Origin: Heterodontus francisci
Lineage: Eukaryota
Length of the DNA: 64,000 nt
Reading direction: 5' to 3'
Assembly (NCBI RefSeq): GCF_036365525.1
Contig: NC_090373.1
Span: 85,061,221-85,125,220, forward strand
Shown piece by piece: positions 1-61,662 of the stretch. The translations under genes and the position numbers were made by a program. Position 1 is the stretch's first letter, and each line of letters opens with the position of its first letter. The notes below the pieces were generated by a model. The model worked only from the letters and a program-made list of their open reading frames with translations. It was not told the DNA's origin and searched no databases.

Positions 1-3000
1 TCTGACAACCATCATCTGTGCTGTGGTTGTTCTACCTTCTAGCTGCATAAGTGTTTGAAGATAATAATGAATAGCAGCTCCAATAAATCAGGCAATAATG
101 AGTCATGAATGTGCAGGTGCACTCTGTTGTAATTTAGAAACTGCAGCTTGATTGAAAGCTAGGATTGGAGGGCAAAGTTTTCAGACAAATTAGCACCAAT
201 TACAATTTGATGCATGGCCACAGCATAATTTTTTCAACAAGTCCCTTTTGCCAAGGCAATCCTCTCTCAGTTATCATGCTGGAGATAATTGATTCCTAAT
301 TATTAAATCTTCTGATACCAGTGTTTGGGATATAACTTAGTAACTGATCATTTATTTAAATACTTTATGGTATTTAGTTCCACTTTAACCTTTGTGCTTT
401 GTTGCCAGGCAGAATCTACTATGAAAAGGCTACTATTATCATTAGATTTGTAATGTGTACAAAATAGCCTGACCAGATATGAAGCAGAGTCCCAGATAGC
501 TGAATATTTGGGCAGTGATACTGCCATGAAAATAGATATTTTAAAGTACAATGGAGGTAGTGAGAATAATGGGTAGTGTTATACTTTTGTTTTCTTTATT
601 CCTTTAGAAGCCAGAAGAGTTTACCTATAGCTATAATTTAATTGTATATCACATTTTTTCTTTATTTCTGTTAGATTTCTAAAGCCCTCAAATTTTGGAC
701 AGGATGATATCACAGTGGAATTGTTGCTAAACCTAATATCACAATGGTATTTGTACGTTTGCATCATAGTCATAATGAACATAAAATACCCTCAATTCAC
801 AAAAATATAAGTGCTTGATAGAGCTACGAGGCAACAAGTGATAAGTAAATAAACTGCACTGAAATTATAGCTTGGATTATACTGTTAGAGATATATTTGC
901 AGTTACATTTTTCTGTTTTCTTTGAGATTTTTAATTGAGATAAAAAAAATAATTTCTAACACAGCAACTTGTTCCTCTGCAATGTAATTACATATGATTG
1001 TGGTGCTATCTTTTTCTCTTTGTCACCAATTAACAGTTGTTTATTGCAAAAGCAGCAGCTTTGTATGTACTTGCACAAAACTAATGGAATATTTGTTCAT
1101 TACTGAAATTTGCTGGTAAAATTCAAATTATATCTACTGTGTTTCCTTATTGGATTAAGAATATTTGATCGATTTGATGAAATTTATAATAGACTTTTTT
1201 ATTTGTGGTAATAATCCTTTATAGAAACTGGGCCTTTCCTTCATTCAAATTGGCAGCCTTTGCCATGTTGATTTCTGAGGGTAAATTCGTCCAAATGCAC
1301 TCATTGGGAATACATCTTGGGAAATAGTGGGAGTTTCTGCAATTTCCTGACCTGCATTCCTAGAGTGCAAGACTCCATAACCAGAATGCATGCTTATAAA
1401 ATCTTGTCCCTACTGTCAGCTCAATTAAAGGAAATTATTCAAAGATGCACGAAATTCAATATGTAGGCCTATTTTGTAATTGTTTCCAGTTTACAACTTT
1501 CAATTACCAAAATTGCATAATTTTTCCTTTGAAAATGGATTAAATGCCCATTTTTCATAATTATTTTTGACCTATTAACAAATGGTGAGAATATGCATCT
1601 TTGAAGCATGCACTTTCTGAGAGCACAATTTTATTAGAGGTCAAAACAACCAATCAGAATATACCAGAAATAAAGATCCTATTACCCTTTTCAAGCAGCT
1701 ATATGGCCTTTTCAAGCAACTAATGAGCTATTTAAGTGCTGCAAAAAATTGTCAGTGCAGCTGTGGACTGATCAAATTTATTTGAAAATGGCTCAGCAAC
1801 AGCAGTATAAAGGCAAATTTAATGACCTGGCTTTGCATATTCTTTTGATTTATATAATGGAAGGATTTGTGATGTGGGAGGATAACCCCCAAATGTGATA
1901 TGGAGGTAACAAATATGTCCTAGATAACATGAATTCAATGTTAACAATTCTAACGGCCTGATGCAAGTTTAGGAAGAGTCTGATTGATTGAGAGAGCAGT
2001 ATACTGATGGAAGAATATAACTATTCACTATCACCAGAGGACAAATGTGGACCTGGACAAAAGTCATGTGATTAGAAATAAATGCAAATAATGCTGTACC
2101 AACAGATAGAAATGTTAGTAAGTGAAAAAAGCAGAATTATACAAATGCAATGTTACCAAAGAGAATGCACTTCAGAGAAGAATTTCCATGGGTCACATCA
2201 CCTGTCTCAATCCACACTGCTCTAAGCTTAAGAGTAAAGCTGTCACATAAAGCATAACATGGTGGGATCCATATGCATAAATAACTCATTGCATAAAAGG
2301 ACAGAATAGTAAATTAATTCAGGAGGGAGAACTTGGAAGGCTCTGGGCTCCAAATGTGGAAGGCTTGCACCGACCAATTTCTATGCGCTATATTAATTCT
2401 GTTTTCCATGATTTGTGTGAATAGTCACATCAACATATTGATACACATTGGCTGTGTACAATAATGCATTCAATAAAAATATAAAACCTAAATGTATGAG
2501 TAAAGTTTTATAGTGTCCAGACTTCTGTATTCACAGAACAATGTTTAACCAAAGCATACCAAAAGTGCACCATACCCATGAAGACCATCACTCACTGAAG
2601 TGCCATACATCACTGCACCCCAACCCCCCCTTGAATCAGACAGACACAAACACATAAAAGGTTGAAGACGAAGTACAAGGTGTTCAGAAATACTGTGACA
2701 AAAGGGTAGTAGTGGTGGATGTTGATGGAAGAATAGCACCTGAAGTGCTGTAACCTGCTGGGCTAAGGACCAAATGCTGGAAAGTGGGGTTAGGCTGTGA
2801 GGCTCTTTTGTTTCAGCTGGCACAGATACGTTGGGCCAAGCAGCCGCTTTCTGTGCCGTAAACTTTCTATGATTTTTTAAAAATTCATTCATGGGATTTT
2901 TGGGCGTCGCTGGCTAGGCCAACATTTATTGCCCATCCCTAATTGCCCTTGAGAAGGTGGTGGTGAGCTGCCTTCTTGAACTGCTGCAGTCCATTTGGGT

Positions 3001-3187
3001 TAGGTACACCCACAGTGCTGTTAGGAAAGGCGTTCCAGGATTTTGACCTGGCGACAGTGAAGGAACGGCGATATAGTTCCACGTCAGGATGGTGTGTGAC
3101 TTGGAGGGGAATCTGCAGGTGGTGGTGTTCCCATGTATTTGCTGCCCTTGTCCTTCTAGCTGGTTGAGGTCACGGGTTTGGAAGCTG

Positions 3188-5745
3188 CTATCTAAGGATC
3201 CTTGGTGCATTGCTGCAGTGCTTCTTGTAGATAGTACACACAGCTGCCACTGTGCGTCGGTGGTGGAGGGAGTGAATGTTTGTAGATGGGGTGCCAATCA
3301 AGCGGGCTGCTTTGTCCTGGATGGTGTCAAGCTTCTTGAGTGTTGTTGGAGCTGCACCCATCCAGGCAAATGGAGAGTATTCCATCACACTCCTGACTTG
3401 TGCCTTGTAGATGGTGGACAGACTTTGGGGAGTCAGGAGGTGAGTTACTTGCCTCAGGATTCCTAGCCTCAGACCTGCTCTTGTAGCCACGGTATTTATA
3501 TGGCTACTCCAGTTCAGTTTCTGGTCAATGGTAGCCCCTAGGATGTTGATAGTGGGGGATTCAGCGATGGTAATGCCATTGAATGTCAAGGGGAGATGGC
3601 TAGATTCTCTCTTGTTGGAGATGGTCATCGCCTGCCACTTGTGTGGCTCGAATGTTACTTGCCACTTATCAACCTAAGCCTGGATATTGTCCAAGTCTTG
3701 CTGCATTTCTCCAGGGACTGGTTCAGTATCTGAGGAGTCACGAATGGTGCTGAACATTGTGCAATCATCAGCGAACATCCCCACTTCTGACCTTATGATT
3801 GGAGGAAGGTCATTGATGAAGCAGCTGAAGATGGTTGAGCCCAGGACACTACCCTGAGGAACTCCTGCAGTGATGTCCTGGAGCTCAGATGATTAACCTC
3901 CAACAACCGCAACCATCTTCTTTTGTGCTAGGTATGACTCCAGCCAGCGGAGGGTTTTCCCCCTGATTCCCATTGACCTCAGTTTTGCTAGGGCTCCTTG
4001 ATGCCATACTCGGTCAAATGCTACCTTGATGTCAAGGGCAGTCACTCTCACCTCACATCTTGCGTTCAGCTCTTTTGTCCATGTTTGAACCAAGGCTGTA
4101 ATGAGGTCAGGAGCTGAGTGGCCCTGGCGGAACCCAAACTGAGCGTCACTGAGCAGGTAATTGCTAAGCAAGTGCCGCTTGATGGCACTGTTGATGACAC
4201 CTTCCATCACTTTACTGATGATTGAGTGTAGGCTGATGGGGCGGTAATTGGCCGGGTTGGACTAGTCCTGCTTTTTGTGCACAGGACATATCTGGGCAAT
4301 TTTCCACATTGCAGGGTAGATGCCAGTATTGTAGCTGTACTGGAACAGCTTGGCTAGGGGTGCGGCAAGTTCTGGAGCACAGGTGATCAGTACTATTGCC
4401 GGAACATTGTTAGGGCCCATAGCTTTTGCAGTATCCAGTGCCGTCAGTCGTTTCTTGATATCACGTGGAGTGAATCGAATTGGCTGAAGTCTGGCATCTG
4501 TGATGCTGGGGACTTCAGGAGGAGGCCGAGATGGATCATCAACTCGGCACTTCTGGCTGAAGATTGTTGCAAATGCTTCAGCCTTATCTTTTGCATTGAT
4601 GTGCTGGGCTCCCCCATCATTGAGGATGGGGATATTTGTGGAGCCACCTCCTCCAGTTAGTTGTCTAATTGTCCACCGCCATTCACGGCTGGATGTGGCA
4701 GGACTGCAGAGCTTCGATCTGATCCATTGGTTTTGGGATTGCTTAGCTCTGTCAATCGCATGCTGCTTACGCAGTTTGGCACACAGATTGTCCTGTGTTG
4801 TAGCTTCACCAGGTTGACACCTCATTTTGAGGTATGTCTGGTGCTGCTCCTGGCATGCCCTTCTGCACTCTTCATTGAACCAGGGTTGGTCTCCTGGCTT
4901 GATGGTAATGGTAAAGTGGGGGATATGCCGGGCCATGAGGTTACAGATTGTGGTTGAGTACAGTTCTGCTGCTGCTGATGGCCCACAGCGCCTCGTGGAT
5001 GCCCAGTTTTGCATTGCTAGATCTGTTCGAAATCTATCCCATTTAGCACGGTGATACTGCCACACAACACGACGGACAGTATCCTCAATGTGAAGGCGAG
5101 ACGCCGTCTCCACAAGGACTGCGCGGTGGTCACTCCTACCAATACAGTCATGGACAGAAGCGTCTGCAGCAGGCAGATTGGTGAGGATGAGGTCAAGTAT
5201 GTTTTTCCCTCGTGTTGGTTCCCGCACCACCTGCCGCATACCCAGTCTTGCAGCTGTGTCCTTTGGGACTCGGCCAGTTCGGTCAGTAGTGGTGCTGCCA
5301 AGCCACTCTTGGTGATGGACATTGAAGTCCCCCACCCAGAGTACATTTTGTGCCCTTGCCACCCTCAGTGCTTCCTCCAAGTGGTGTTCAACATGGTGGA
5401 GTACTGAGTCATCAGCTGAGGGAGGGCGGTAGGTGGTAATCAGTGGGAGGTTACCTTGCCCATGTTTGACCTGATGCCATGAGACTTCATGGGGTCCAGA
5501 GTCGATGTTGAGGACTCCCAGGGCAACTCCCTCCCTACTGTATACCACTGTCCCGCCACCTCTGGTGGGTCTGTCCTGCCGGTGGGACAGGACAAACCCG
5601 GGGATGGTGATGGCGGAGTCTGGGACATTGTCTGTTAGGTATGATTCGGTGAGTATAACTATGTCAGGCTGTTGCTTGACTAGTCTGTGGGACAGCTCTC
5701 CCAACTTTGGCACAAGCCCCGAGATGTTAGTAAGGAGGACTTTGC
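3188..5745 (-). pseudogene. Disrupted EN-RT polyprotein ORF of LINE copy 1
   Basis: Three collinear ORF fragments separated by a few stops/frameshifts. The endonuclease first motif (VLLTNISGLVPKL) is read just upstream of the tracked ORF start. Confidence 0.88.
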
Positions 5746-6087
5746 AGGGTCGACAGGGCTGGGTTTGCCGTTGTCATTTCCGGTGCCTAGGTTGATGCCG
5801 GGTGGTCCGTCCGGTTTCATTCCTTTTTATTGACTTCATAGCAGTTAGGTACAACTGAGTGGCTTGCTAGGCCATTTCAGAGGGCATGTAAGAGTTAACC
5901 ACATTGCTGTGGGTCTGGAGTCACATGTAGGCCAGACCAGGTAAGGACAGCAGATTTCCTTCCCTAAAGGACATTAGTGAACCAGATGGGTTTTTACAAC
6001 AATCGACAATGGTTTCATGGCCATCATTAGACTAGCTTTTAATTCCAGATTTATTAATTAAATTCAAATTCCACCTTCTGCTGTGGT

Positions 6088-6163
6088 GGGATTCGAACCC
6101 ATGTCCCCGGAGAAATACCCTGGGTCTTTGGGTTACTAGTCCAGTGATAATATCACTACGCCA
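6088..6163 (-). promoter_or_regulatory. Type-2 internal RNA polymerase III promoter (A box and B box) at the LINE 5' end
   Basis: Sense-strand TGGCGTAGTGA (6163-6153) matches A-box TRGCNNAGTGG; GGGTTCGAATCCC (6100-6088) matches B-box GGTTCGAATCC. Confidence 0.75.
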
Positions 6164-6189
6164 CCGCCTACCCTCAAACTTCCCTCAAA

Positions 6190-8290: not shown

Positions 8291-8296
8291 ATATAA

Positions 8297-9575
8297 TTCC
8301 CAGCCTCTGACCTACTCTTGTAGCCAAGTATTTATTTGGCGGTTCCAGTTAAGTTTCTGCTCAATGGTAACCCTCAGGATGTTGCTGGTGGGGGATTCAG
8401 CGATGGTAATGTCGTTGAACGTCAAGATGAGATGGTTAGATTCTCTCTTGTTGGAGATGGGCATTGTCTGGCACTTGTATGGCATGAATGATACTTGCCA
8501 CTTATCAGCCCAGGCCTGAATGTTGTTAAGGTCTTGCTGCTTGCGGGCACGGTTGCTTCACTATCTGAGGAGTCGTGAATGGCATTGAACATTGTGCAAT
8601 CATCAGCAAACATCCCCACTTCTGATGTTATGATGGAGGAAGGTCATTGATGAAGCAGATGAAGGTTGTCAGGCCAAGGACACTACCCTAAGGAACTCCT
8701 GCAGTGATGTCCTGGGGATGAGCTAATTGGCCTCCTACACCACAAGCATCTTCCTTTGTGCTAGGTATGACTCCAACTAGTGGAGAGTAGTCCCCCTGAT
8801 TCCCATTGACTTTAATTTTGTTAGGGCTCCTTGATGCCACTCTCAGTCAAAAGCTGCCTTGATGTCAAGGGCCGTCATTCCTACCTCCCTTCTGGAGATC
8901 AGCTCATTATCCATGTTTGGGCCAAGGCTGTAATGAGGTCTGGAGCGCGTGGCTCTGGTGGAACCCAAATTGAGCATCAGTAAACAGGTTGTTGCTGAGC
9001 AATTGCCACTTGATAGCACTGTCGACGACCCATTCCATCACTTTGCTGATGATTGAGAGTAGACTGATGGGGCAGTAATTGGTTGGATTGGGTTAGTCCT
9101 GCTTTTTATGGATAGAACATACCTAGGCAAATTTTCACATCATTGGGTAGATGCCAGTGTTGTAGTTGTACTGGAACAGCTTGGCTAGGAGTGTGGATAG
9201 TTCTGGAGCACAAGTTTTCAGTACTACATCTGGGATGTTGTCAGGGTCCATAGCCTTTGCTCTATCCAGTACCTTCAGCTGTTTCTTGATATCACGTGGA
9301 GTGAATCGAATTGGCTGACAACTTGCATTAATGATGGTGGGGATCTCAGGAGGAGGTTGAGATGGATCATCCACCTGGCATTTCTGGCTGAAGATGGATG
9401 CAAATGCTTCAGCCTTTTCTTTTGCACTGATGTTCTGTGCTTCACCATCATTGAGGATGAGGATGCTTGTGGAGCCTCCTCCTCTGGTTAGTTGTTTAAT
9501 TGTGCATCACCATTCACAACTGGATTTGGCAGGACTGCAGAACTTTGATCTGATCTGTTGGTTGTGGGATCGCTT
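8297..9575 (-). mobile_element. Internal RT fragment of the same single-ORF LINE family (copy 2, older)
   Basis: Collinear similarity to ~3460-4740 (MGMFADDCTMF; DDPSQPPPEIP...KTCAPELSTLLAKLFQY). Confidence 0.88.
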
Positions 9576-9629
9576 TTCTCTGGGCCGAAGGGCCTGTTTC
9601 AGTGCTGTATCTCTCTATGACTCGATGAC

Positions 9630-9928: not shown

Positions 9929-10242
9929 CTTGCTAGGCCATTTCAGAGTGCAGCTAAGAATCAACTACATTGCTTTGGGTATGGAGTCACAAAAAGGCCA
10001 GACCTGGTAAGGACAGCAGATTTCCTTCCCTAAAGGACATAAGTGAACCAGATGTTTTTCATAACAATCCAGGAGTTTCATGGTCTCCATTACTGAGACA
10101 AGCTTTTTATTCTAGATTTATTAGTTAATTGAATGTAAATTCCACCAGCTGCCACGGTGGGATTTGAACCCATGCCTTTGCAGCATTAGACCAAGTCTCT
10201 ATATTACTCATCTAGTAACATTACCACTACACTAGCATCCCC
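9929..10242 (-). mobile_element. tRNA-derived head of the LINE/SINE family (diverged copy)
   Basis: Similar to 5853-6173 and 17350-17670 (GGGTTCAAATCCC B box; TGTCCTTTAGGGAAGGAAATCTGCTGTCCTTACC core); same strand as LINE copy 2. Confidence 0.85.
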
Positions 10243-11736: not shown

Positions 11737-12084
11737 TTAGTTTAGTTTAGTTTAGAGATACAGCACTGAAACAGGCCCTTCGGCCCACCGAGTCTGTGCC
11801 GACCATCAACCACCCATTTATGCTAATCCTACACTAATCCCATATTCCTACCACATCCCCACCTGTCCCTATATTTCCCTACCACCTACCTATACTAGGG
11901 GCAATTTATAATGGCCAATTAACCTACCAACCTGCAAGTCTTTTGGCTTGTGGGAGGAAACCGGAGCACCCGGGGAAAACCCACGCAGACACAGGGAGAA
12001 CTTGCAAACTCCACACAAGCAGTCCCCAGAATTGAACCCGGGTCGCTGGAGCTGTGAGGCTGCAGTGCTAACCACTGCGCCGCC
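11737..12084 (-). mobile_element. HE1-type tRNA-derived V-SINE inserted in the Gypsy LTR
   Basis: GCAGTGGTTAGCAC A box, GGGTTCAATTC B box, GGTGCTCCGGTTTCCTCCCAC V-domain core, (CTAAA)n tail. Confidence 0.88.
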
Positions 12085-13078
12085 ACTGTGGCTTCTAGTC
12101 ACATGGCTATATCCTGGTACTTAGCTTGTTAGCATACTGAGCTCTTAAAGGGACATCACTTTAAGGCAATCATACAACATCCCCTTTCTTTCCAAAGATA
12201 GGTCTTGTATGCTACAGGTAAAAACTCATAAAATTGGATAACATCAAAATTATTTATATGGGATAGAGATTAGAAAATCTACAAGTGCAGAAGCTTAAGA
12301 GTCCATATATCATTTTGATGGTTTGACAACTCTTCCAGATCTTGTTATGGTATAACCTTCTCGGGGTGTGGATTTTACCCTTGGCTGTTTTGGTTTGCAG
12401 ATGTGTTGTCAATGTGTTGGTTGTTGTCCTGTCGTTCTGCCACACCCTCAGTGTCAGAGTGTGACATCTTCTGAGTCCACTGTATGCACTTGGAGTATTG
12501 CACACTTCTCTCAATTGGCTTTGGTTCCTCCCCAACACTGCTCTGCAGGTTGTAACCTTCTAGGACGTAGGCTTACTGCAAACTTTGGATACTTCTGTGG
12601 GTAACCATGTTTTCATTGTGGCATGTATGACCCAGATCTCTTGTCCTACATGCAGCTGATGTAGTTCCGTCCCTGCATGTCGGTCATGCATCATCTTCAT
12701 TCTCCCTTGTTTTTCGAGCAGTGTCTCCTGCATATCGGAGAATTTGGACAACTGATGGCTTGGCAGGATCATTCACACTTGTCTGCCAAACATGATCTCT
12801 GCTGATGACGGCAAGCCCATCCTCATAGGTTTAGTTCTGAGGTGTAGCAAGGCAACACAAAAATCTTGTTTCATTGTCCTTTACTTCAGGATAAGTGATT
12901 TAACTCTGCAAACCATTCGCTCAGCAAGACCACTAGATCTAGGGTAATGTGGTGAGGATGTCACATGGTTTACGTCCTATTTGGTGCACATATCCCTGAA
13001 AGGTCTGCCCATAGACTGTGGCCCATTGTCAGAAATAATTTCTTCAGATGCATCAAATAGACTGAATATGGCACTCAA

Positions 13079-15658: not shown

Positions 15659-15980
15659 GGGTGGCACTGTGGCGCAGTGGTTAGCACCTCAGCCTCACAG
15701 CTCCAGGGACCCGGGTTCGATTCTGGGTACTGCCAGTGCGGAGTTTGCAAGTTCTCCCTGTGACCGCGTGGGTTTTCGCCAGGTGCTCCGGTTTCCTCCC
15801 ATAGCCAAAGACTTGCAGGTTGGTAGGTAAATTGGCCATTATAAATTGCCCCTAGTGTAGGTAGGTGGTAGGGAATATGGGATTAGTGCAGGGTTAGTAT
15901 AAATGGGTGGTTGTTGGTCGGCACAGACTCGGTGGGCCGAAGGGCCTGTTTCAGTGCTGTATCTATAAATAAAAATAAAT
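15659..15980 (+). mobile_element. HE1-type V-SINE inserted in the Gypsy gag region
   Basis: Same A/B boxes, V core and tail as 11737-12084. Confidence 0.88.
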
Positions 15981-16904: not shown

Positions 16905-17985
16905 AAACACATAAATCCTTAAGGTGACAGGACAAATTGATAAGGTGATTTAAAAAGCATCTGAGTTATTCAGGATAAAAATAGAAGAACAGAATATAAA
17001 AGTAAAGAGATCATGCTGGAAGTTTATAAAACACTGGTTAAGATTCAGCTGGGGTATTATGGACATAACGGCACCACACTTAGGAAAGATTTAAAGGCCT
17101 TGGAAAGGATACTGAGGAGGTTTACTGGGATGTTACTAAGGATGAGGGACTTCATTTATGAGGAAAGGTTGGAAAGCGAGGATTATTCTCCTTCGATAGA
17201 AGGTTAAGAGGTGACGTAATAGAGATTTTCAAGATGAGAAGAGATTTTGATAGAGTCGAGAAAAATTATTCCTTCTGGTGGGCAAGTCAATAACTAGAGG
17301 TCATAGATACAAAATTATTAGCAAAAGATCTAGCGGGGAGACCATGAATGGGGAGGCGGTGGCGTACTGGTATTGTCACTGGACTAGTAACCCAGAAACC
17401 CCGGTATTGCTCTGGGGACATGGGTTCGAATCCCACCACAGCAGAAGATGGAATTTGAATTCAATTAATAAATCTGGAATTTAAAGCTACTCTAATGATG
17501 ACCATGAAACCATTGTCGATTGTTGTAAAAAAACCCATCTGGTTCACTAATGTCCTTTAGGGAAGGAAATCTGCTGTCCTTACCTGGTCTGGCCTACATG
17601 TGACTCCAGATCCACAGCAATGTGGTTGACTCTTACATGCCCTCGAAATGGCCTAGCAAGCCACTCAGTTCAAGGGCAATTAGGGATGGGCAATAAATGC
17701 TGGCCTGGCCTGCAACGCCCACATCCCATGAATGAATTTTTAAAAAAGATGAAGAGAGCTGTTTTCTTTTAGAGAATTGTCAGGATCTGAAACGCTCTAC
17801 CTGAAAAAGTAGTGGAAGTTGATTCCATCAATAATTTTAAAAGGGTGTTGGACAGGCACTTGATGATGAGGAACTTACAGGGTTGAGACAAAAAGCAGGG
17901 AGTGGGACGAAGCACAACTGCTTTTTCAAGGAGCCAGCGCAGGCCAAATGGCCTCCTTCTGTGCTGTAAGTTTCTATGATTCTAC
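16905..17985 (+). mobile_element. CR1 LINE 3' fragment, split by a SINE at 17350-17747
   Basis: ORF 17013-17207 (LEVYKTLV, KDLKALERILRRFTGML); CR1 homology resumes after 17747 through the 3' UTR. Confidence 0.8.
17350..17747 (+). mobile_element. Bipartite tRNA-derived SINE = 5' ~320 nt + 3' ~77 nt of the LINE at 2873-6173
   Basis: 17350-17670 matches the reverse complement of 5853-6173, and 17671-17747 matches the reverse complement of 2873-2951. Junction reads GCCACTCAGTT|CAAGGGCAATTAGGG. Confidence 0.92.
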
Positions 17986-19321: not shown

Positions 19322-19404
19322 TTCTTCTCAAGGGCAATTAGGGATGGGCAATAAATGCTGGGCTAGCCAGCGACACTCACATCCCATGAGCAAATAAAAA
19401 AAAA
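19322..19404 (+). mobile_element. Isolated 3' tail of the single-ORF LINE family (heavily 5'-truncated insertion)
   Basis: CTTCTCAAGGGCAATTAGGGATGGGCAATAAATGCTGG...ATCCCATGA + poly(A), inserted in a CR1. Confidence 0.85.
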
Positions 19405-21856: not shown

Positions 21857-23405
21857 CTAGAATTCCCAAAAACTACTTCTTGTTCAGGCTCCAGTATGTT
21901 CACTGAGTAGCAGATGTTGCCAATGCAAAGAAAAGGATAATGATGCTCTTTGGAGGGAGAGTGGGTGTTTCGTCTTCTGGTTGTTTTCTGGTTCCTAGAT
22001 GTTGAAAATAATCACACTTTAAACTTGGAAAGGCTGGAGACTTTGTTTATTCATTCAGCCAGCATGCTGCCTGGTGTAGGACAGCTTGAGACTGGTTTAG
22101 TGTTACACATCGCATGACTCTCCAGTGCAGCCATGAAGTTGCCCCACTGGAACACTTGCACATAACAATTAGTTCCTAGCACTTTACAGATAATATAACA
22201 ATAAATAACATTATTAATATTAATCTTTCAGCAATCCCTTGCTCAGTGAACTGAACTCATATTGCTGAGATGATTGTTGTGGCTCTCAAGTCTTTCACTT
22301 TCCGAATAAAAGGGAACTTTGAGTTTTGCAACTATGAGATACCATTCTTGATTATGTGTGAATAAATCGACTCCTACAGTATGCCATGGTCTGGGTGGTA
22401 CTTCAGTAGCTATCATCTCCTGTTTCTAATGTGTGTTTCTGTGCTTCTGGCATACGTTGCATGTAGACACTATATTTTTGATGTCTTTGTATATGCCTAT
22501 CCAGTACACAGCTGATCTGGCTCTGAGCTTACATTTCTCCATTCCCATGTGACCTTCATGTATCCTTTGGAGAAGTTCTTCCTGCATTGTTTTGGGTATG
22601 ATTATTCTGAATCCGGCTAGTAGAACACCAACTTCTAGTGAGATGTCATCTCTGATAGACCAGTACTGCCGTATTGCTGGCTGTGTTTGCTGTATCTTAT
22701 CAGGCCATCCCTGGATCATTTGCTGAGACAGCATCTGTAACTCCTCATCTTTGCTGTTCTCATCTCTAATTTGACTAAGTTTTGGTGGTGTTACATTCAC
22801 TAGGTGATGAATCCTTATACCTAGATCTTCTTTCTCGTGTTTCTTCTGTGGTGACAACTGAGATAGGGTGTCTGCCAGCACCATTTCTCTTCCTGGCTTG
22901 TATTTCAGAGTGAAATCGTAACTCTGAAGCCCCAAGAGTAACCTCTGCAGTCTTGCTGGTGCTTTATATAGATTGTTCTTGTAGATCTGCTCCAGTGGGC
23001 AATGATCACTCTCCACGATCAACTTTCTCCCACAGACATATGTGTGGAACTTCTCACATCCGTACACGACTGCCAAAAGCTCTCTTTCTATGTGGCATAT
23101 CTTGTCTCCGCTGGTGTTAGAACAGGGTTGTCCAATCTTTTCGGGCAGAGGGCCACATTGCGATTGTTGCTCGGCCTGGGGGGCCGGTGAGCAAATTTCA
23201 AAAGATAACGGCATTAAAATTTATCTTCCTAATAAAAACAACAACAAATGTGCATTTTTTGTGAAGAAGTTTAAATGAGAAGACTAATTTCGTGACTTCA
23301 TTTCTTGTAACTATATTAAAAACTGATTTAGTGACATACCTGACATTGTTTTTGCTTTAATAAGTAGTCAAACTCCGCCTGTGCACTTGATGTGACGATG
23401 CAGAA

Positions 23406-28551: not shown

Positions 28552-28922
28552 ACTCTCTCCCCTGTCTGTCTTTCTCTCTCTCTCCCCCCCCATCTGTCTC
28601 CCTTTCCTCCCCACTCTCTCTGTCTCCTCCTCCTCCTCTCTCTATCCCTCTCCACCCCGCCCCCCCCCACCGTGTATCTCTCCCCACTCCACCCCTTGTG
28701 TCTCCAGTGTTCCACGCTCCCTGCTCAGTGTTCCCCACTCTCTCTGTTCCCCTGTCTCTCTGTTCCCCCTTCTCTCCCCCTTTCTCTCTCTCTCTGCCCC
28801 CCTCTCTGTCTCTCTGACCCCTCTCTCTCTCTGTCTCTCGTCTCTCTCTGTTCCTCCTCTCTCTGATCCCCCCCCCCCCCCCCACCCGCCTCTCTCTGTC
28901 TCGCTCCGCCACTCTCTCTCAC
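28552..28922. repeat. CT-rich low-complexity / microsatellite tract
   Basis: Runs of (CT)n and Cn; produces spurious Arg/Glu/Gly-rich ORFs on the minus strand. Confidence 0.9.
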
Positions 28923-28925
28923 ACA

Positions 28926-29224
28926 GTTGCAGAGAGTGGAATGCTCTTTTAAAGTTCTTTTAGAAATCAGTTCTTTTAAAAAAAGCTTGTTGTCATTTTC
29001 ACAGGTGACAGCTGCTGACATTGGGAACAGCCATTTCCCAACAGACTCCGGTTTTCTGGCAGGCTTTTTAAAAAATAAGTCAGAAGCTGCCGAAAAACCC
29101 CGAGTCTGTTGGGAAATGATTGTTCCCGATGTCAGTGGCTGCAACCTGTGAAACTGACAACGATCTTTTTTAAAAGAACTGACTTTTAAAAAGAACTTTG
29201 AAAGAGCATTCCACTCTCTGCAAC
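28926..29224. repeat. ~300-bp imperfect palindrome inside the hAT element
   Basis: GTTGCAGAGAGTGGAATGCTCTTTTAAAGTTC at the left is the reverse complement of GAACTTTGAAAGAGCATTCCACTCTCTGCAAC at the right; pairing continues inward (TTTCCCAACAGACTC / GAGTCTGTTGGGAAA). Confidence 0.9.
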
Positions 29225-34969: not shown

Positions 34970-36980
34970 GGTGGCAGCAGTTTGTAACCACATGGCTTGG
35001 CATATCGCCTACTCCACCGTTACCATCAAGCCGGGTGACCAACCCTGGTTCAATGAAGAGTGCAGGAGAGCTTGCAAGGAGCAGCACCAGGTATACCTAA
35101 AAATGAGGTGTCAGCTTGGTGAAGCTACAACACAGCACTACTTGCATGCCAAACTGCTGAAGCAGAATGCAATAGACAGGGCTATGTGATCCCACAACCA
35201 ACAAATCAGATCTAAGCTCTGCCGTCCTGCCACATCCAGTTGTAAGTGGTGATGGACAATTAAACAACAGACAAGAGGAGGAGGCTCCACGAACATCCCC
35301 ATCCTGTACGATGGGGGAGCCCAGCACAGCAGTGCAAAAGACAAGGCTGAAGTATTTGCATCCATCTTCATCTTGTAAGTGCCGAGTGGATGATCCATCT
35401 CGGCCTCCTCCTGAGGTCTCCAGCATCACAGATGTCAGTCTTCAGCCAATCTGATTCACTCCACATGATATCAAGAAATGACTGAAAGCACTGGATACTG
35501 CAAAGGCTATGGGCCCTGACAACATTCTGGCAAGAGTACTGAAGACCTGTGCTCCAGAACTAGCTGCGCTCCTAGCCAAGCTGTTCCAGTACAGCTACAA
35601 CACTGGCATCTACCCTGCAATGTGGAAAATTGCCCAGCTATGGCCTGTGCATAAAAAGCAGGACAAATCCAAACCGGCCAATTACCGCCCTATCAGTTTA
35701 CTCTCAATCATCAGCAAAGTGATGGAAGGGGTTGTCAACGGTGCTTTCAAGTGGCACTTGCTCAGCAAAAACCTGCTCAGGGCCACTCAGCTCCTGACCT
35801 CATTACAGCCTTGGTCCAAACATGGACAAAAGAGCTGAACTCAAGAGGTGAGGTGAGACTGTCCCTGACATCAAGGCAGCATTTGACCGAGTGTGGTATC
35901 AAGGAGCCCTCGCAAAACTGGAGTCAATGGGAATCAGGGGGGAAACTGGTTGGCTGGGCTCATACCTAGCATAAAGGAAAATGGCTGTAATTGTTGGAGG
36001 TAAATCATCGTAGCCCCAGGACATCACTGCAGGCTCAGGGTAGTGTCCTGGACCCAGCCATCTTCAGCTGCTTCATCAATGACCTTCCCTCCATCATAAG
36101 GTCAGAAATGGGGATGTTCGCTGATGATTACACAATGTTCAGCACCATTCGCGATTCCTCAGATACTGAAGCAACCCATGTCCTCTGCAGGATGACCTGG
36201 ACAGCATCCAGGCTTGGGCTGATAAGTGGCAAAGAACATTCGCACCACACAAATGCCAGGCAATGACCATCTCATACAAGAGAGAATCTAACCATCTCCC
36301 CTTGACAGTCAATGGCATTACCATGGCTGAATCCCCCACTATCAACATCCTGGGGGTTACAATTAACCAGAAACTGAACTGGACCAGCCACATAAATGTT
36401 GTGGCTACAAAAGCTGGTCAGAGGCTGGGGATTCTGCAGCAAGTAACTCACCTCCTGTCTCCCCAGTGCCTGTCCACCATCTATAAGGCACAAGTTAGGA
36501 GTGTGATGGAATACACTCCAATTGCCTGGATGGGTGCAGCTCCAACAACTCTCAAGAAGCCTGGCATCATCCAGGACAAAGCAGCCCGCTTGATTGGCAC
36601 CCCATCCACAAACATTCACTCCTTCCACCACTGACGCACAGTTGCAGCAGTGTGTACCATCTACAAGATGTACTGCAGCAACTCACCATGGCTCCTTAGA
36701 CAGCACCTTCCAAACCCGCGATCTCTACCACCTAGAATGACAAGGGCAGCGGATGCATGGGAACACCACCACCTGCAGGTTCCCCTGCAAGCCACACACC
36801 ATCCTAATTTGGAACTATCTCGCCGTTCCTTCACTGTCCTGGTACTCCCTTCCTACACCCAAGGACTGCAGCGGCTCAGGAAGGCAGCTCACCACCAGCT
36901 TCTCAAGGGCAATTAGGGATGGGCGATAAATGTTGGCCTAGCCAGTGACGCCCACATCCCCTGAATGAATCAAAAGAAAA
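34970..36980 (+). mobile_element. 5'-truncated copy 3 of the single-ORF LINE
   Basis: ORFs 34971-35189, 35509-35838 and 36263-36634 match copy 1 proteins; same 3' tail followed by an A-rich end. Confidence 0.92.
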
Positions 36981-37246: not shown

Positions 37247-38351
37247 GTAGAGTCATAGAGTTATACAGCACAGAAACAGCCCTTCAGCCCATCGTCTCTG
37301 TGCTGGCCATGAAGCACCTATCTATTCTAATCCCATTTTCCAGCACTTGGCCCAAAGCCTTGTATGCTATGGCTTTTCAAGTGCTCATCTAAATGTTTCT
37401 TAAATGTTGTGATGGTTCCTGCCTCTACCACCTCTTCAGGCAGTGCGTTCCAGATTCCAGCCACCCCCTGGTGAAAAATGTTTTCCTCAAATCCCCTCTA
37501 AACCTCCTGGCCCTTACTTTAAATCTATGCCCCCTGGTTATTGATCCCTCTGCTAAGGGAAAATGTTTCTTCCTATTTGATCTATCCATGCCCCTCATAA
37601 TTTTGTATACCTCAATCAGGTCCCCCCTCAGCCTTCCCTTCTCTATAGAAAATAACCCTAGCCTATCCAGTCTCTCTTCATAACTGAAATGCTCCAGCCC
37701 AGGCACCATCCTGCTGAATCTCCTCTGCACTCTCTCCAGTGCAATCACATCCTTCCTATAATGTGGCGACCAGAACATTACACAGTCCAGCTGTGGCCTA
37801 ACTAGCGTTTTATACAGCTCCATGATAACCTCCTTGCTCTTATATACTGTGCCTCGGCTAATCAAGGCAAGTATCCCATATGCCTTCCTAACCACCTTAT
37901 CTACCTGTGCTGCTGCCTTCAGTGATCTATGGACAAGTACACCAAGGTCCCTCAGACCTTCTGTACTTCCTACAATTCTACCATCCATTGTATATTCCAT
38001 TGCCTTGTTAGTCCTCCTTAAATGCATCACCTCCCACTTCTCAGGATTAAATTCCATTTACCACAACTTCGGCCATCTATATCGTCCTGTAATCTAAGGC
38101 TTTCCTCCTCACTATTTATGACATCACCAATTTTCATGTCATCTGCGAAATTACTGATCATACCTCCTATGTTCACGTCTAAATCATTACTGTACACTAC
38201 AAACAGCAAGGCTCCCAGCACCGATCCCTGCGGTACACCACTGGTCACAGGCTTCCACTCACAGAAACAACCCTCGACCATCACCCTCTGCCTCCTGCCA
38301 CTAAGCCAATTTTGGATCCAATTTGCCAAATTGCCCTGGATCCCATGGGCA
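37247..38351 (-). mobile_element. CR1 LINE (HER1-like) 3' portion whose tail matches the HE1 SINE tail
   Basis: ORFs 37425-38057 and 38027-38398 (GVPQGSVLG, FADDMKI). The 3' end 37247-37310 resembles the HE1 tail GGGCCTGTTTCAGTGCTGTATCTCT. Confidence 0.88.
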
Positions 38352-47534: not shown

Positions 47535-48534
47535 TGTCAGGCAAACCGCCCAGCTGCCACAGCCAAAGACTTGCAGGTTGATAGGTAAATTGGCCATTGT
47601 AAATTGCCCCTAGTGTAGGTAGGTGGTAGTAGAATTGAGGGAAGGTGGGGATGTGGTAGGGAATATGGGATTAATGTAGGATTAGTATAAATAGGTGGTT
47701 GATGGTCAGCACAGACCTGGTGGGCCAAAGGGCCTGTTTCAGTGCTGTATCTCTCTATGACTCTAATGAGGCACACATGATTTCCCCACATGAACATTAA
47801 AACTTAAAATTGCAAGCCCCTGACTGCATAGTAACCGATAGTGTTGGAACAATGAGGATCCAGTCATTGCTTCCCCAATACACAGAAGAAGTGATCAGAC
47901 CAGTTTTGGTCACATGGCTGACTGACTGTTGGAGGTTTTGAATTTGAACTTCCAACAGAGGATTTGAACTCAAAAAAAGCCATCTACTCCCAGTTGGAAC
48001 AGAACCTCCTCTCCAGTCCTGCCTTCCTCCATCTCTTTCCCACAGAACTGAATCTTGTGAAGACACATGAACCTCAAAGAGAGAAAGGTCTCCTACGTGA
48101 ACAAGGTTTAAGAAGAACACTGGGCCCCGATGAACAGCAAGACGACCTACAATCAAGTGAGCTCGAAACACAGTAAACAGGAAACTCTTCTGATATTGCA
48201 CCAAACCCCTCTCTACTATATTTTCCTCTTCTCTTTTCTGTCCCTATTTGCATGTGTGTATCGTGTACGCATGCAAGCGTGGGCGCGCCGTATATCTGTA
48301 GACGATAACCATATTAGAGTTCAAGTTTAAGTTTTAATAAAATTTCATCTTTCTTCTTTAAACCTCAGAAAACATGTGTAAATTGGTTTCTTTGACTTAT
48401 AATTGGAAAGCTGTGAACAAGATTCACAAAGGGGGAGCTCAAAACACGGTGTGTCTAAAATTAAACTCTGCTACAATAAGGCCAGGTGAAGATAGTAACA
48501 AACCCCTAGACACCTTTCTCACCTGGTCATAACA
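47535..48534 (+). mobile_element. Solo LTR (Gmr1-like family) with 5-bp TSD, containing a truncated HE1 SINE
   Basis: TGTCAG...CACCTGGTCATAACA, similar to 55679-56493; TSD CTCTC on both sides; HE1 3' half at ~47557-47764. Confidence 0.85.
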
Positions 48535-49668: not shown

Positions 49669-50000
49669 AGTGGCGCTGTGGTTAGCACTGCAGCCTCACA
49701 GCTCCAGCGACCCGGGTTTGGTTCTGGGTACTGCCGGTGTGGAGTTTGCAAGTTCTCCCTGTGACTGTGTGGGATTCCGCCAGGTGCTCCAGTTCCCTCC
49801 CACAGCCAAAGACTTGCAGGTTGATAGGTAAATTGGCAATTGTAAATTGCCCCTAGTGTAGGTAGGTGGTAGGAGAATGGTGGGGATCTGGTAGGGAATA
49901 TGGGATTAAATTAGGATTAGTGTAAATGGGTGGTTGTTGGTTGGCACAGATTCGGTGGGCTGAAGGGCCTGTTTCAGTGCTGTATCACTCTATGACTCTA
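49669..50000 (+). mobile_element. HE1-type V-SINE
   Basis: Same structure as the other copies; (CTATGACT) tail variant. Confidence 0.88.
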
Positions 50001-52754
50001 ATATGTAATGTTTGAAGAGCTACAGAATTTGACCTTTGGAAATATGAAAGGAAGGTTTTCTCTATGTGCTGTATATAGCAAAATCATAAACTTATTTTTG
50101 CTATACATAGATTCCCACCTCCCACAGAGATTTATATCATGAAAAAATTGTCATTTCAAACATAAGCCATCACAAAGTACCCTTATGACTTTTTTCATTT
50201 AGAACTTTTTTTCAAAATCGGACTTGTGAAGTTGCTACAGGCTTATGTGTTATTTTGAAAATGGGATAGAGATGGCTCTAATCCTGAATTGTTCACCTCT
50301 CACAACCTTTACAGGACAGTAATTATGATAAATCATTCAGAATAGCTGAAAGCTGATCTAAGGGATGTCACTGTAATGAATTGTTTTCTGAAGTTAAAAT
50401 CCATTGGAGAGATGTTGAAATTGGTCTCCCTGGAAGTCCCAGAGATGACGTGGAGGAAATTAATTTAACAATTATTTTATTTATGATCTCCAAGTTGACT
50501 TTTTCATCTCTGCTATATTTTACAATGCCTATGACTGCCTATGGTCTTATGGAACTGGGTAATATTTCAAATGCTACCCTTCAGCAGAAGTCCCTACATT
50601 ACCATACAATTTGCATGGAAGTGAATATTCAGTATGTGGATATCACCACATCTCCAAATATACTAGAAATACAAAAATACAACTTTTCAGAAAGCAAGTT
50701 CTATCACAGATGCGGCTGTGTTGGCAATGGAACACTGGGGGATTAAATATAGACCTTACAGCCAATTATATTCACATCAAATTACATTCTTCATTTGAAA
50801 AAAACAACTGCTATAACACACAAAGGGGTAAATAATTCATTAATTTACTCATTCACTGACTGTTGTGTTTTTTCCAGCATTTCTTAAAATTGCAATAAAA
50901 TCAAAGTCTACAGAAAAATGTAACGCCCATTATCAGAGACATGTTACTGGCATTTAATCTCTGGGAAAAATAAAGATTGATGCAAGAAATATTCTTTTTT
51001 CATAAGGATATAAGTCCAATTCTAAACAAATTACTAAAACATCAATAATAAAGAAGAATTTGGACAACCCAAGGGTAACCCATCTTTCAATCACAAGGTC
51101 ATAAGTTTCATTCCAAGGCCGTCTGTCATTCGTTGAGCAAGTTCAGTCAGTTCTTAGCTAGGTTGCTAGACAGAGTTCTTCAAGATATAACAGCAGGGGT
51201 TTGAATAAACTGCTTACATCTGACCCATTCAATTTGAATCTAACCTTCTGTCCAGTAATTATGAAAGGCATTGATGGGAATCAGGAAGCCTCTCAGCTGG
51301 AAGAAAATATGGGTGACAAACAACTCAAGGAGGAAGGAAAATCAAGGGTATATGTCTCTCTTACAACAATCCAAATTTCTAGCTGTTCATGGCTATCACT
51401 TTCTCAATCGTTTTAGTTTGTGCCATGTATCTAATCATTTTGATAAATTAGGTATATGTGATTATTTATAATTGTTACTTGTACATTGGTAGAGTTAAAT
51501 TTATTTATTTAAACCCTCACTAATTTGGTCCATGTCCAAAATCCTTAACCTTTATTACATTGCTATGAGTGATAAATTTTGGCACAAACAGAGCAATTTG
51601 TTTTGTTGACTGAACTGCTACTCTTGACAAAATAAATCAAGTGCAAAGTGTACATCTGGAAGTTTTTGAGCCATTGCTTTTTTGAGTTACTTTGTAGTAG
51701 CGGTAACACATCTTCCAGATTTATTTGTGCAACTAGACCATATGTATAATCTTTCCCTTTCATCTCACAAAGGAAAATTTCTTTCAAGCATTTATAGGAG
51801 ATATAATTATCTTTTGAAAGGACATACATACATTCATCTAATGAAACTGATAGAATGACTATAAAGATAGATCTTTCTTATTTATGATAAACAAAATTAG
51901 AATATATTTAGACAATGCACTATTGTGATGATAAAATAGGCAAACTTCAAATTTGTATTAAGCTTCTTGACAAAAATAACATAAAATAAATGAAATGCCA
52001 ATTAAGGGTGAAAACATAATAATGGCATTTTTGTCTTTAATCCCTTGGTGTTCATGAAATCACTGCATGTGATATATTCATCACACAAGGTCTCAGCTGT
52101 GAAAAGGTTTTATGTGTATCTGAAGAAGGCGTGGACTACAATTTAATTTGGTTACTTTTAATTTATTTTACACCCTGATTTTAGCATTTAATTGCTGATG
52201 TCACTTCTTAGGTTTCTCTTGTACCATTACTGATTTGAGCCATTTGAGTTAGACTGAATTTTTTTTTCTACCAAGAATTGTGGGCAATTTAGTCCTCAAG
52301 TTTAGTCTGAATTTCTAGGCTGTTGCCTGGAATGCAATTGGTCAGGGTTCAATAATATAGATAGTAACTTGAGGACATCAATCCAAAATTTCATTTATTA
52401 CCATTTGTGGAAGCGGGGGGATAGGGAGAATTTTTGCAGTTATCTTTCCTTAGAGGTTTTACCTGTACATATTTGCTTCGGTCAGAAGATTAAAGAACTT
52501 TGTAATTAATGGGAGTGAAAATTGTGCCTGGGTCATTGGAATGGGCCAATAAACTGAATTTTCTTTTCCTTTTCAATCTTTCCTATGTTCTTTTTGGTAC
52601 ATATTGATGTAATCCATGTGAAATGAGAAATAGAACAAACTCAAGTAAATGTTCTACTGCAGTTGCACATTACTCCTGATCTATAACAAAACTTTCATTT
52701 ATTATAGTACCTCGTCATATCAAAATAACTCAAAGTACTTCAGTATTGCTGAAA

Positions 52755-52997: not shown

Positions 52998-55900
52998 TGT
53001 TAGAAGCAGACCCAGACAGGGTATTGCTAACAAAGTTACAATTGGAACAAAGGAAACTTGAATTAGAGGAAAGAGAGAGTGAGAGGCAGGACAGGGAGAG
53101 ACAGCCTTCCAGAAGGAATGTGAAGATATAGAGAGGAGAGGGGGAAAGAGAAACAGGAGAAGGAACGAGAGAGAGAGGAGAGAGAGAGAGAGAAAGAATA
53201 TTCCAGAAAGAATCTCAAAAAAGAAAGCTGAAGTGGCTTGAGTTAACTAGGGGGCAACAGAGTAACCCCAGTGAAAGCTTGGCCAATATGGAGGAGCATA
53301 ATTCAGGGCTGGGTACAAAATTGCTAAAACTTGATCTACTAATTCCAAAATTCAATGAGGATGATGTGGGGGCATTTTTGTATCTTTTGAGAAACTGACA
53401 AGACAGCTAAAATGGCCAGCTGGACCTGGTCTCTTTTACTACAAAGCAAGCTAACTGGAAAAGCCCATGAGGTTTATTCCTTGTTGCCAGATGAGAGTTC
53501 ATCAAATTATGAACTGACCAAAAATGCTATTCTTGCGGCATATGAATTAGTACCCGAAGACTGTCGCCAAAAGTTTAGAACCCTCAAAAAGCAAGCTAAT
53601 CAAACTTGTCGGGAGTTTGAAAGAAGTAATCAGCTGCCTTTTGACCAGTGGCTGATGGCTCTTAAAATACAGTTCAGCTATGAGAATCTCAGGGAAGGAG
53701 TCCTGTTAGAGGAATTTTAAAACGCTCTCCCATTCTCAATAAAAACCCTGTAGAGAAGCAGCAAGTCCAGAGAGCCCGGCAAGTGCGGGCTAATGAGTTT
53801 GCTTTCATTTATAAGTCGGTTTCCCGGGGAGAACCATTCCTAATCACCACCACAAATCCAAAAGGGACAAAGGGTGGGAAGTTGATAGAAGCCCAGCCAG
53901 TCCTGGGAGAGAAAGGAAAGCAGGAGTCACAGGGGGCCCTCCTCCAGCCAAAAAGGAAGGTGCTGTGAGCAAGAGTGAGACCTGGAGACCTGTGTGCTTC
54001 CATTGTAATAAGGCAGGGCATTTAAAAGCTGACTGCTGGAAACTAAAGGGTAAACCAGTAGGGTTAATCAGGGCACACCCACTCAGTGAAGATGGGAATC
54101 TGATGGAAAGCACAGAACAAGCTGTGGCTTTAACTGCAGTAAGAGTGCAACCCAGGAAGCTTACTATGGCCGGGGCAGGAAAAGTTAATAGGATTCCTGA
54201 AAGTTATTAGGGATTTGTGTCTGAAGGGAAAGTAACCCCATACCCCTCGAGTGGGACAAGCAAGCCCATAGTGATTCTCAGGGACACAGGGGCCACTAGA
54301 TCCCTTTTACCGGGAAAAGGCCTGACCTTTCCCCCAGAGAGTGCACAGAAAACAAAAATGGTGGTGAATGGTATTGGAGGGTAGTGTATGCCTGTACTTG
54401 TACACTGAGTGCACCTGGAATGCGACCTAGTTTTGGGACAGATGACTGTAGGGATTGTCCCTAGTTTGCCTGTGGACAGGGTTGACCTGCTCCTGAGTAA
54501 TGATCTGGTGGGGGTGAAGGTGGTAGCTCCCCCAGTAGTGAAAGAAAAACCACAGGAGGTCAGAGAGACAGGGCCGTGGCAGGAGACAGTCCCCTGCAGT
54601 TCCCCAGAATGTTCAGCGGATCAGGCCATGATCAAACCAGCTCCCCCAGAGGAGACTGAATTAGCACCGCAGGCAGATGACCATGAGGTCTGCCTTTCCA
54701 AGACTTTCTTTGGAATGTTAGGAGACTGGCCAAAACTCCACAAAGATGTGGTGGAGTACTGCAGGAGCTGCCACATGTGCCAGGTTGAGGGGAAACACCA
54801 ACCTACAGTGAAACCTGCACCCCTAAGTCCTGCACCGGTTTTAGGAGGACACCTCCCCTCCCCCAGCAGAGGGCTGGTGAACTGTAAGGGAACCCCGCCA
54901 AGAACAAAAGGGGACAGGCAGGCACACATCTGGCAAAAGTTTAGAAAGAGAAGGGGAAAATCTGACCAAGAGGGCAGGTTAAAGGAAGTCCGGGAGGAAT
55001 CCTGGAGGAAAACCCCTACTGTCCGGTCAGCCAACCCTGAAAAATTTGAAAAGTTAGACCCCGCATCCTCCTACATAAATGCAGACTCTAGAAGCACCCC
55101 ACCAGAGTTGCTAACAGCATTTACAGGAACCTGCAGAGAGAAAGAGAGACCTCTATGGGGCACAAAAACCATGAGGGTGATGCTTCACCAAGTCGAAGTG
55201 CCACAGAAGAGTGCAGTCAAGTCTGCACAAATACCTACATGTAGGAGTGTCCCAGAGAACAAAGGGGAGATTAACAAAGAATCTTCCCCCATGTCAGAGA
55301 AAAAGGGAACCACCCATCCCCTGAAGTCAAAAGCCGTTGCATGACTCAGCAAAGCACTGAAAGAGAGTTCACGATAGACCCGCCCACTACTAAATCTCCT
55401 GGGGAAGAAAAATGGCCTCAACAGAACCAAGACCATAGGCAGTCATGGCAATGGGTAAACTGAAGAAAAGCATACCCAAATAACCACATGGTTACTGGGA
55501 TACCAAAAAGGGGAAATTAAAGCAGCACTGGCACCCAGAAAAGTCAATTTTAATAAGTTTTAGGATTCATGAATGAATAAAAATGAATGAGAGAAATGCA
55601 TGTTTTTTCTTTCTGTATCTTATATTTCTCTCAAGCCTTTTTTTTTCAAATCGCATTTCATTCCCCTGGATGTGGGGGTGTCATGCAGGCCCCCACCTGC
55701 CAAGAATGAGGCACATATATTTCACCACATGGACCTTACATTTTAAAATTGTTGCTGGGAAGAAAAGAAGGACTGTTACAAGGGGTTGCCAAGCCCCTGG
55801 CTGGAAAGACATTTTTTGCATATTAGCAGACAGTGTTGGAACAAAGGGACCAGTTCCTGCTCCCCAATATACAGAGGAGACCTGCTGGCCAACTAGGGTA

Positions 55901-61309: not shown

Positions 61310-61662
61310 GCAGCACAGTGGTGCAGTGGTTAGCACTGCAGCCTCACAGCTCCAGCGACCCGGGTTCAATTCTGGGTACTGCCTGTGTGGAGTTTGCAAG
61401 TTCTCCCTGTTTCTGCGTGGGTTTCCTCCGGGTGCTCCTGTTTCCTCCCACATGCCAAAGACTTGCAGGTTGATAGGTAAATTGGCCATTATAAATTGCC
61501 CCTAATATAGGTAGGTGGTAGGGAAATATAGGGACAGGTGGGGATGTGGTAGTAATATGGAATTAGTGTAGGATTAGTATAAATGGGTGGTTGATGGTCG
61601 GCACAGACTCGGTGGGCCGAAGGGTCTGTTTCAGTGCTGTATCTCTAAATAAATAAATAAAT
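61310..61662 (+). mobile_element. HE1-type V-SINE inserted in a degenerate MITE
   Basis: Full A/B boxes, V core, (TAAA)n tail. Confidence 0.88.

Follow-up and report, generated by a model that had tools for sequence, protein, structure and literature searches.

The window, i.e. the whole 64,000-nt stretch of Heterodontus francisci DNA that was analysed, contains a full-length LINE of 3,301 nt on the minus strand (2873–6173) and a SINE of 398 nt on the plus strand (17350–17747). At its 5' end (5853–6173, minus strand) the LINE has a tRNA-like head and a body that it shares with the SINE (BLAST, 94% identity), and we refer to it as the headed LINE. It has a single APE-RT reading frame of ∼970 codons (2939–5860, minus strand), with several in-frame stops in the window copy. 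An APE endonuclease (PF03372, PF14529), starting near 5743, and an RT (PF00078) lie in this one frame. These were the only Pfam matches; we found no ORF1 and Pfam gave no RNase H match. The LINE copies show no conserved in-frame ATG ahead of the endonuclease. In 15 of 24 copies the leader (∼5900–5680, minus strand) carries ATGs at 161 and 77 nt before the endonuclease, which are out of frame with the main ORF, and one in-frame ATG is followed by a TAG two codons later. The leader ATGs may belong to short upstream ORFs, or initiation may make use of a read-through site here. The predicted folding of the 434-nt leader was not better than that of shuffled sequences (z = −1.39). The closest named proteins are shark proteins. 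Pieces of the ORF with 68–85% identity are found in the shark gene models P0012, P0016, P0025, P0026 and P0042 (Heterodontus, Heptranchias, Pristiophorus), where they may be annotation artefacts or the result of exonisation. Further remains of the headed LINE in the window are an internal fragment (8296–9582, minus strand, 83% identity), a 5'-truncated older copy (34983–36970, plus strand, 84%) and a 3' tail fragment (19324–19404, plus strand). The window also has an older copy of the head (9929–10174, minus strand, ∼81–82%), which is followed neither by the body of the LINE nor by its tail.

The SINE at 17350–17747 is a head-plus-tail copy of a young family with a CAAG junction and matched the window LINE (6173–2873, minus strand) in two BLAST blocks. 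For the first block, its first 321 nt (17350–17670) aligned to LINE positions 6173–5853 with 303 of 323 positions identical (94%, E = 7e-140). For the second block, ∼78 nt (17670–17747) aligned to 2952–2873 with 73 of 80 positions identical (91%, E = 5e-28). One T is common to both blocks and thus the junction reads CAGT[T]CAAGGG. A preliminary description of this DNA had proposed ∼320 nt of LINE 5' end and ∼77 nt of LINE 3' tail joined at CAGTT/CAAGGG, and the two blocks confirm this structure.

The head of the SINE (17350–17442) is tRNA-like with a long variable arm. It contains two motifs, at 17360–17370 and 17423–17433, that fit the consensus of the A and B boxes. Default ARAGORN reported no tRNA in the head, and Rfam gave a tRNA-Sec fit below the cut-off (E = 0.41) together with a match to the T-arm (E = 0.007), i.e. 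the head is tRNA-like and does not score as a tRNA. For the source tRNA, relaxed ARAGORN mostly returned Thr(agt) on the head, amid many spurious calls. A tRNA-Ser anticodon-arm motif had 295 genomic matches, with no tRNA gene at the six loci inspected. The body (17443–17670), common to the SINE and the LINE leader, is not a Deu domain; its last part, immediately ahead of the junction, is a predicted hairpin. The LINE-derived tail (17671–17747) comprises the last codons of the ORF, a predicted stem-loop with AATAAA, a GAAT repeat, a T run and an A tail. The copy sits inside the remains of a different, older RT-family repeat, and its upstream flank shows ∼65–75% identity to other RT-family copies. 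In 28 SINE copies, target-site duplications were no more frequent than in shuffled flanks; a single 17-nt case was the exception.

Both elements belong to dispersed families and are not one-offs. In the 6.0-Gb H. francisci genome the 18-mer at the end of the head has 20,344 exact matches; it is followed by GTA (the LINE type) in 10,515 exact matches and by CAAG (the type of the window SINE) in 3,316, with 0 matches for the reversed-pattern controls. The preliminary description had named a LINE consensus without the head as evidence against itself, but the LINE family, with its 10,515 LINE-type junctions, carries the head. Among the best 30 LINE-junction matches, 21 start at most 6 nt from head base 1 and have unrelated flanks; one of these 21 is the window copy. 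Similarly, 28 of the best 30 SINE matches are full length. We found at least 2,900 of the 3,301 nt covered in 17 of the 25 LINE loci examined at full length, and 29 of 43 LINE-type heads start at most 15 nt from base 1. A position sample of 80 stretches of 10 kb plus the window (864 kb) contained 33 LINE-type 3' ends and 8 LINE alignments that reach position 520 or lower. Six of the eight continue into the head, and the remaining ones end at 506 and 518.

Pol III terminates at oligo-T. PMC8466645 reports TTTT, TCTTT and TATTT as terminators. On the sense strand of 15 near-full LINE copies we observed 9 runs of four Ts (T4) compared to ∼74 expected, and 10 of the copies had none, whereas A4, C4 and G4 runs occurred as expected. 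The ORF of the window LINE likewise has no T4 run on the sense strand. Over 92 LINE segments (125 kb) the observed/expected ratio of T4 was 0.18, compared to 0.95–2.21 in 13 other RT families from the same genome and loci. It was between 0.12 and 0.40 in all four identity (age) classes of the headed LINE, and the depletion was confined to the sense strand. TCTTT and TATTT showed ratios of 0.15 and 0.17. Synonymous shuffling of the window copy gave P = 0.017 for T4, and its number of T3 runs (8 versus 17) was reached in 0 of 1000 shuffles. T4 alone was not significant in four other single copies (P between 0.07 and 0.2), namely a 578-codon frame (P = 0.10) and the three copies ranked next. For the terminator-like motif set, three H. 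francisci copies had the lowest ratios of 118 ORFs (0–0.39 versus 0.58–1.38 in the others), where L325, the nearest relative with DNA, had 0.89; since all H. francisci copies form one family, the effective sample of the T-run test is about one sequence. The depletion on the coding strand suggests Pol III transcription of a protein-coding retrotransposon, and judging from the sequence we consider it more probable than not that the LINE is transcribed by Pol III from its tRNA-type head. The ends of the elements, compared with the T+ SINE arrangement (AATAAA and a T-run terminator before the A tail), are ambiguous in this respect. T4 or longer runs occurred in 9 of 36 LINE and 6 of 24 SINE parsable ends, and AATAAA in 53 of 72 LINE tails and 20 of 42 SINE tails. 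According to PMC8466645, terminal T runs can lengthen passively, and we did not count them as a Pol III footprint.

There is another possible explanation for the RNA of the LINE. The SINEs would still be deletions of the headed LINE, but the LINE RNA, including the RNA from which protein is made, would be Pol II read-through from host or cryptic promoters, with the head as a passenger or of use in the template RNA only and the poverty in T due to some other cause. We consider this unlikely. An uncapped Pol III RNA without an in-frame AUG is hard to translate, and the missing in-frame AUG of the LINE favours Pol II, whereas the sharp start of the LINE copies at head base 1 speaks against read-through. 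The depletion itself bears on both sides. TTTT is no rarer than TTT predicts (Markov-2 ratio 0.94) and TAAT and TTAT are depleted along with TTT, while TTGTT is not; a general avoidance of U-rich sequence thus fits equally well, and the pattern is not specific to T4. However, the depletion is confined to the sense strand; none of the 13 co-resident RT families shows it, nor, judged by the motif-set ratio, do 115 related ORFs, of which L325 is one. A low T4 ratio (at most 0.3) was also observed in 4 of 129 distant LINEs, among them one of another clade, L371 (1 run versus 10.3 expected), and TATTT occurs between the A and B boxes of the youngest LINE heads, both of which favour Pol II. L371 itself (3001–5049) is a LINE that lacks its 5' end; it lies on a MAG contig that is probably DNA of a host eukaryote. 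Pol III products are considered short where PMC10886601 discusses them. We retain Pol III transcription from the head as the preferred reading.

For the relationship between the two families we compared 90 heads, namely the first 90 of 100 listed pattern places, all on contig C1 and chosen regardless of what comes next; L183 and L184 among them are near-duplicates. The heads continued as LINE in 43 cases, with the CAAG junction in 19, a GTCAAG-type junction in 10, GTATTC in 3, AGGG in 2 and other junctions in 9, and 4 were unassigned. Hence 43 of the 90 heads belong to head-plus-tail elements, with at least four recurring junctions. The preliminary description had raised the possibility of a fixed junction. 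This does not hold, as the sampled heads fall into several junction families that differ in age.

In a tree of 62 near-complete heads, for which the bootstrap was not fully settled, a clade of 37 (support 100/99) contained 26 young LINEs, 8 young CAAG SINEs, 2 AGGG SINEs and 1 one-off deletion. The older SINEs and older LINEs fell outside this clade. AU tests rejected a LINE-only head clade as well as a CAAG-only head clade (p ∼2e-8). SINE and LINE heads therefore form one interleaved lineage and not the unrelated lineages that the preliminary description had named as evidence against itself. In age the two sets correspond, with old SINE heads like those of old LINEs and young ones like those of young LINEs. 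We defined 14 head sites from the SINEs alone and scored them in 54 LINE heads, which showed the same old-to-young ladder. Two body sites follow the head ladder, compared to a maximum of one in 500 shuffles, and these are the only two body sites in support of a joint head–body ladder. The young SINE corresponds to a young LINE head plus private changes: at site 18 the SINE-private state occurs in 7 of 8 young SINEs and in none of the 54 LINEs. The T at site 261 that is typical of young SINEs is also present in 3 of 54 LINEs. The tail variant CCTG was observed in all 8 young SINEs and in 4 of 8 LINE tails, but in none of the 7 older CAAG SINEs.

As the SINE consists of both ends of a LINE that itself starts with tRNA-type boxes, it is likely to be a product of internal deletion. 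Taking this step alone, we are fairly confident that the SINE arose from the headed LINE by deletion and is one of several such families. Repeated deletion from the contemporary LINE is the best and simplest reading of the heads and junctions. The one-step internal deletion of the preliminary description thus survives, for the window SINE, as deletion, which is the better reading, and fails as a single step with one fixed junction because there are several families. Heads of old, intermediate and young age are all found at the CAAG junction, so that a recurrent breakpoint or recombination is needed. It lies directly behind the predicted hairpin and directly before the tail stem, and selection for whole modules may therefore funnel breakpoints to this place. 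The recurrence may also be due to recombination with an older SINE.

The same data can be read in the opposite direction, with a long-lived SINE lineage as the primary element, a LINE that repeatedly captured or exchanged its head (and tail) by template switching, and a CAAG junction that was inherited. The spread of this junction over all head ages would fit such a history, but the young and the older CAAG SINEs differ within ∼35 nt on both sides of the junction and inheritance would thus require two close crossovers. The T at site 261 in three LINEs is in favour of it, whereas the private state at site 18, absent from all 54, is not. There is almost no microhomology at the junction, and the sections of PMC5499810 and PMC7245038 on SINE modules treat module exchange among SINEs as established; the new junction types (AGGG and the one-offs), however, carry the youngest LINE heads. 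Overall we find a primary SINE lineage doubtful and continue with repeated deletion from the LINE. Finally, SINE-in-LINE insertions are common in this repeat-rich window, but a SINE that happened to insert before one truncated LINE copy, or an assembly artefact, is refuted for practical purposes: there are 10,515 exact matches to the junction motif, the flanks are unrelated, and whale shark as well as four other organisms have the same join.

In a quick tree the RT of the LINE was placed in a clade of 19 unnamed sequences with 97% support, apart from the other RT families of the genome. Two members of this clade, L244 and L324, for each of which ∼1.1 kb of DNA upstream is available, lack an A/B pair as well as a long upstream ORF, and their T4 counts are normal; head and T-poverty thus look derived together. 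BLAST or profile searches found no similarity to the head in 160 distant loci, no A/B-box pair was seen upstream of the listed distant loci and Rfam found no tRNA in 11 of the distant loci. We infer a single gain of the head in the LINE lineage, the source being either a tRNA gene or an older SINE, after which the lineage kept shedding SINEs. Deletion from the LINE and capture of a head by the LINE had been presented as alternatives in the preliminary description; with distant LINE relatives lacking the head, both are probably true at different depths. The headed form is not confined to the H. francisci genome. The whale-shark gene models P0076 and P0059 translate through the end of the head, the spacer and the endonuclease. 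Contigs of four other organisms cover all 30 LINE bins and contain the 2951–5853 skip joint (13, 7, 22 and 58 contigs); a single contig extends across both the head and the spacer. Many prokaryote MAG contigs among L244–L403 (e.g. Sedimenticola and Thiodiazotropha bins) carry animal-type LINE ORFs and are likely to be host contamination.

The mechanism we propose is as follows. An ancestral LINE would have gained a tRNA-type head once and then lost its oligo-T terminators over 3 kb. Reverse transcription or a deletion in the DNA would join head and tail at 0–1 nt of microhomology. A product that retains the tail stem-loop and the entire head as far as its last hairpin would be a complete SINE from the outset, equipped with a promoter and an RT recognition site. 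These deletion products would amplify in trans and hence each LINE wave would seed its own SINE family. Protein would be made without a 5' in-frame AUG, by some other initiation route. On balance we favour the combined reading, in which the SINE would be the head and tail of an ORF1-less CR1-group shark LINE, created by internal deletion, and the LINE would be transcribed by Pol III from the same head. For the full version, an autonomous LINE transcribed by Pol III end to end (3.3 kb), purged of terminators, translated from an uncapped, AUG-less RNA and acting as a one-step SINE factory, we judge the chances to be even.

The APE endonuclease and the RT, with no RNase H match, assign the LINE to the CR1/L2 group. 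With its single ORF it may be akin to the CR1-Zenon clade; the RTs that group with it in the tree are unnamed. The SINE shows the features of a tRNA-derived SINE (SINE2): it has an A/B-box head, is short, non-coding and dispersed, has fixed ends and has a 3' tail in common with a LINE. Its transcription by Pol III from the A/B-box head is putative. Like a SIDE, it also consists of the two ends, 5' and 3', of a LINE that is autonomous, but the usage of that term in PMC6740152 excludes a small-RNA head or Pol III promoter and a tRNA-type head is present here. In origin the element is a SIDE, while its structure makes it a SINE.

The closest known system is the deletion pair Zenon/Persaeus of Lepidoptera, in which, as set out in that part of PMC6740152, Zenon is a single-ORF CR1 LINE and Persaeus its SIDE. 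As in the shark pair, Persaeus combines the 5' and 3' ends of a CR1-group LINE with variable breakpoints; it had at least four independent origins and its activity tracks the Zenon LINE, and the shark SINE is likewise recurrent. The passages on Persaeus in PMC6740152 give it no homology to tRNA, 5S or 7SL and no Pol III promoter, whereas the 5' end of the shark LINE carries tRNA-type boxes of its own, so that its deletion product is a SINE. The statement in the preliminary description that bipartite derivatives are known mainly for RTE and Vingi needs correction in this light, as the CR1-group Zenon repeatedly yields Persaeus, albeit without a tRNA head. The RTE- and Vingi-derived SINEs described in the corresponding section of PMC5786205 (Bov-tA, AfroSINE, CoeSINE4 and others) also hold 5' and 3' parts of a LINE. 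There the tRNA head was added to an already deleted LINE, whereas in the shark head and body are found in the full-length LINE. A precedent for the head is given by RTE-1_DAn together with related elements, LINEs with a tRNA-like sequence; RTE-1_DAn belongs to the RTE clade, and the passage of PMC5786205 on it makes no claim of Pol III transcription and mentions no derived SINE. The TRIMp3 elements (Cassandra, Helenus, Ajax) resemble the headed LINE as retroelements other than SINEs with a small-RNA Pol III promoter, but are described in the TRIMp3 part of PMC10886601 as non-autonomous LTR elements of up to ∼1.3 kb, in contrast to a 3.3-kb non-LTR element with endonuclease and RT. SacSINE1 and the DeuSINEs with L2-2_CM (the shark sections of PMC5499810) have in common with our pair the host group, a tRNA-derived SINE and a CR1/L2-type partner.

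We rejected an identity with these latter SINEs. The Deu motif (PMC7245038, Fig. S4) is absent from the SINE and the LINE leader at up to 4 mismatches, and by eye the head is unlike the 77-nt SacSINE1 head in the PMC5786205 supplement. Three genomic Deu copies gave no BLAST match to the LINE. The loci L149, L049 and L058 are old, decayed true Deu-SINE copies in the genome and are unrelated to the SINE/LINE pair. With regard to other SINE superfamilies with conserved bodies (CORE, V, Meta, Ceph, UCON3), short motifs of the body had no match among the SINE alignments in the supplements searched, the Meta domain is unlike the body by eye, and a search of the PMC4824008 supplement gave no match.

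The field's division, as given in PMC10886601 and PMC5786205, is that LINEs use Pol II and SINEs Pol III, and the former states that non-LTR retrotransposons use Pol II. In the literature searched, a scope outside which Repbase, Dfam and the subscription journals lie, we found neither a shark LINE with a tRNA head nor a LINE transcribed by Pol III described. According to the section of PMC5786205 on conserved SINE bodies, no LINE source has been found for them; with the headed LINE, a SINE body has such a source. SINEs are usually viewed as built from separately acquired modules, and a SINE-headed LINE with several thousand copies offers a direct one-step route. The headed LINE is the more surprising object of the two and would come close to a new kind of element if Pol III transcription and translation were shown. 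If Pol III does transcribe it, the length limit of Pol III transcripts and the translation of uncapped RNA become testable in one element. Repeat annotation of sharks may split headed LINEs into 'SINE + LINE' and miscount both.

The window also contains six copies of a second, unrelated SINE family of ∼350 nt, presumably of the HE1/V-SINE type (11741–12090 on the minus strand, 15664–15980, 47554–47767, 49669–50002, 61313–61662 and 37248–37339). Remains of an LTR retrotransposon with RNase H-like and integrase zinc-binding matches are located at 22426–23220 (minus strand), and a weak integrase match at 54409–55344 (plus strand). A 300-nt near-palindrome (28926–29224, 83%) adjoins short tandem units at 28554–28914.
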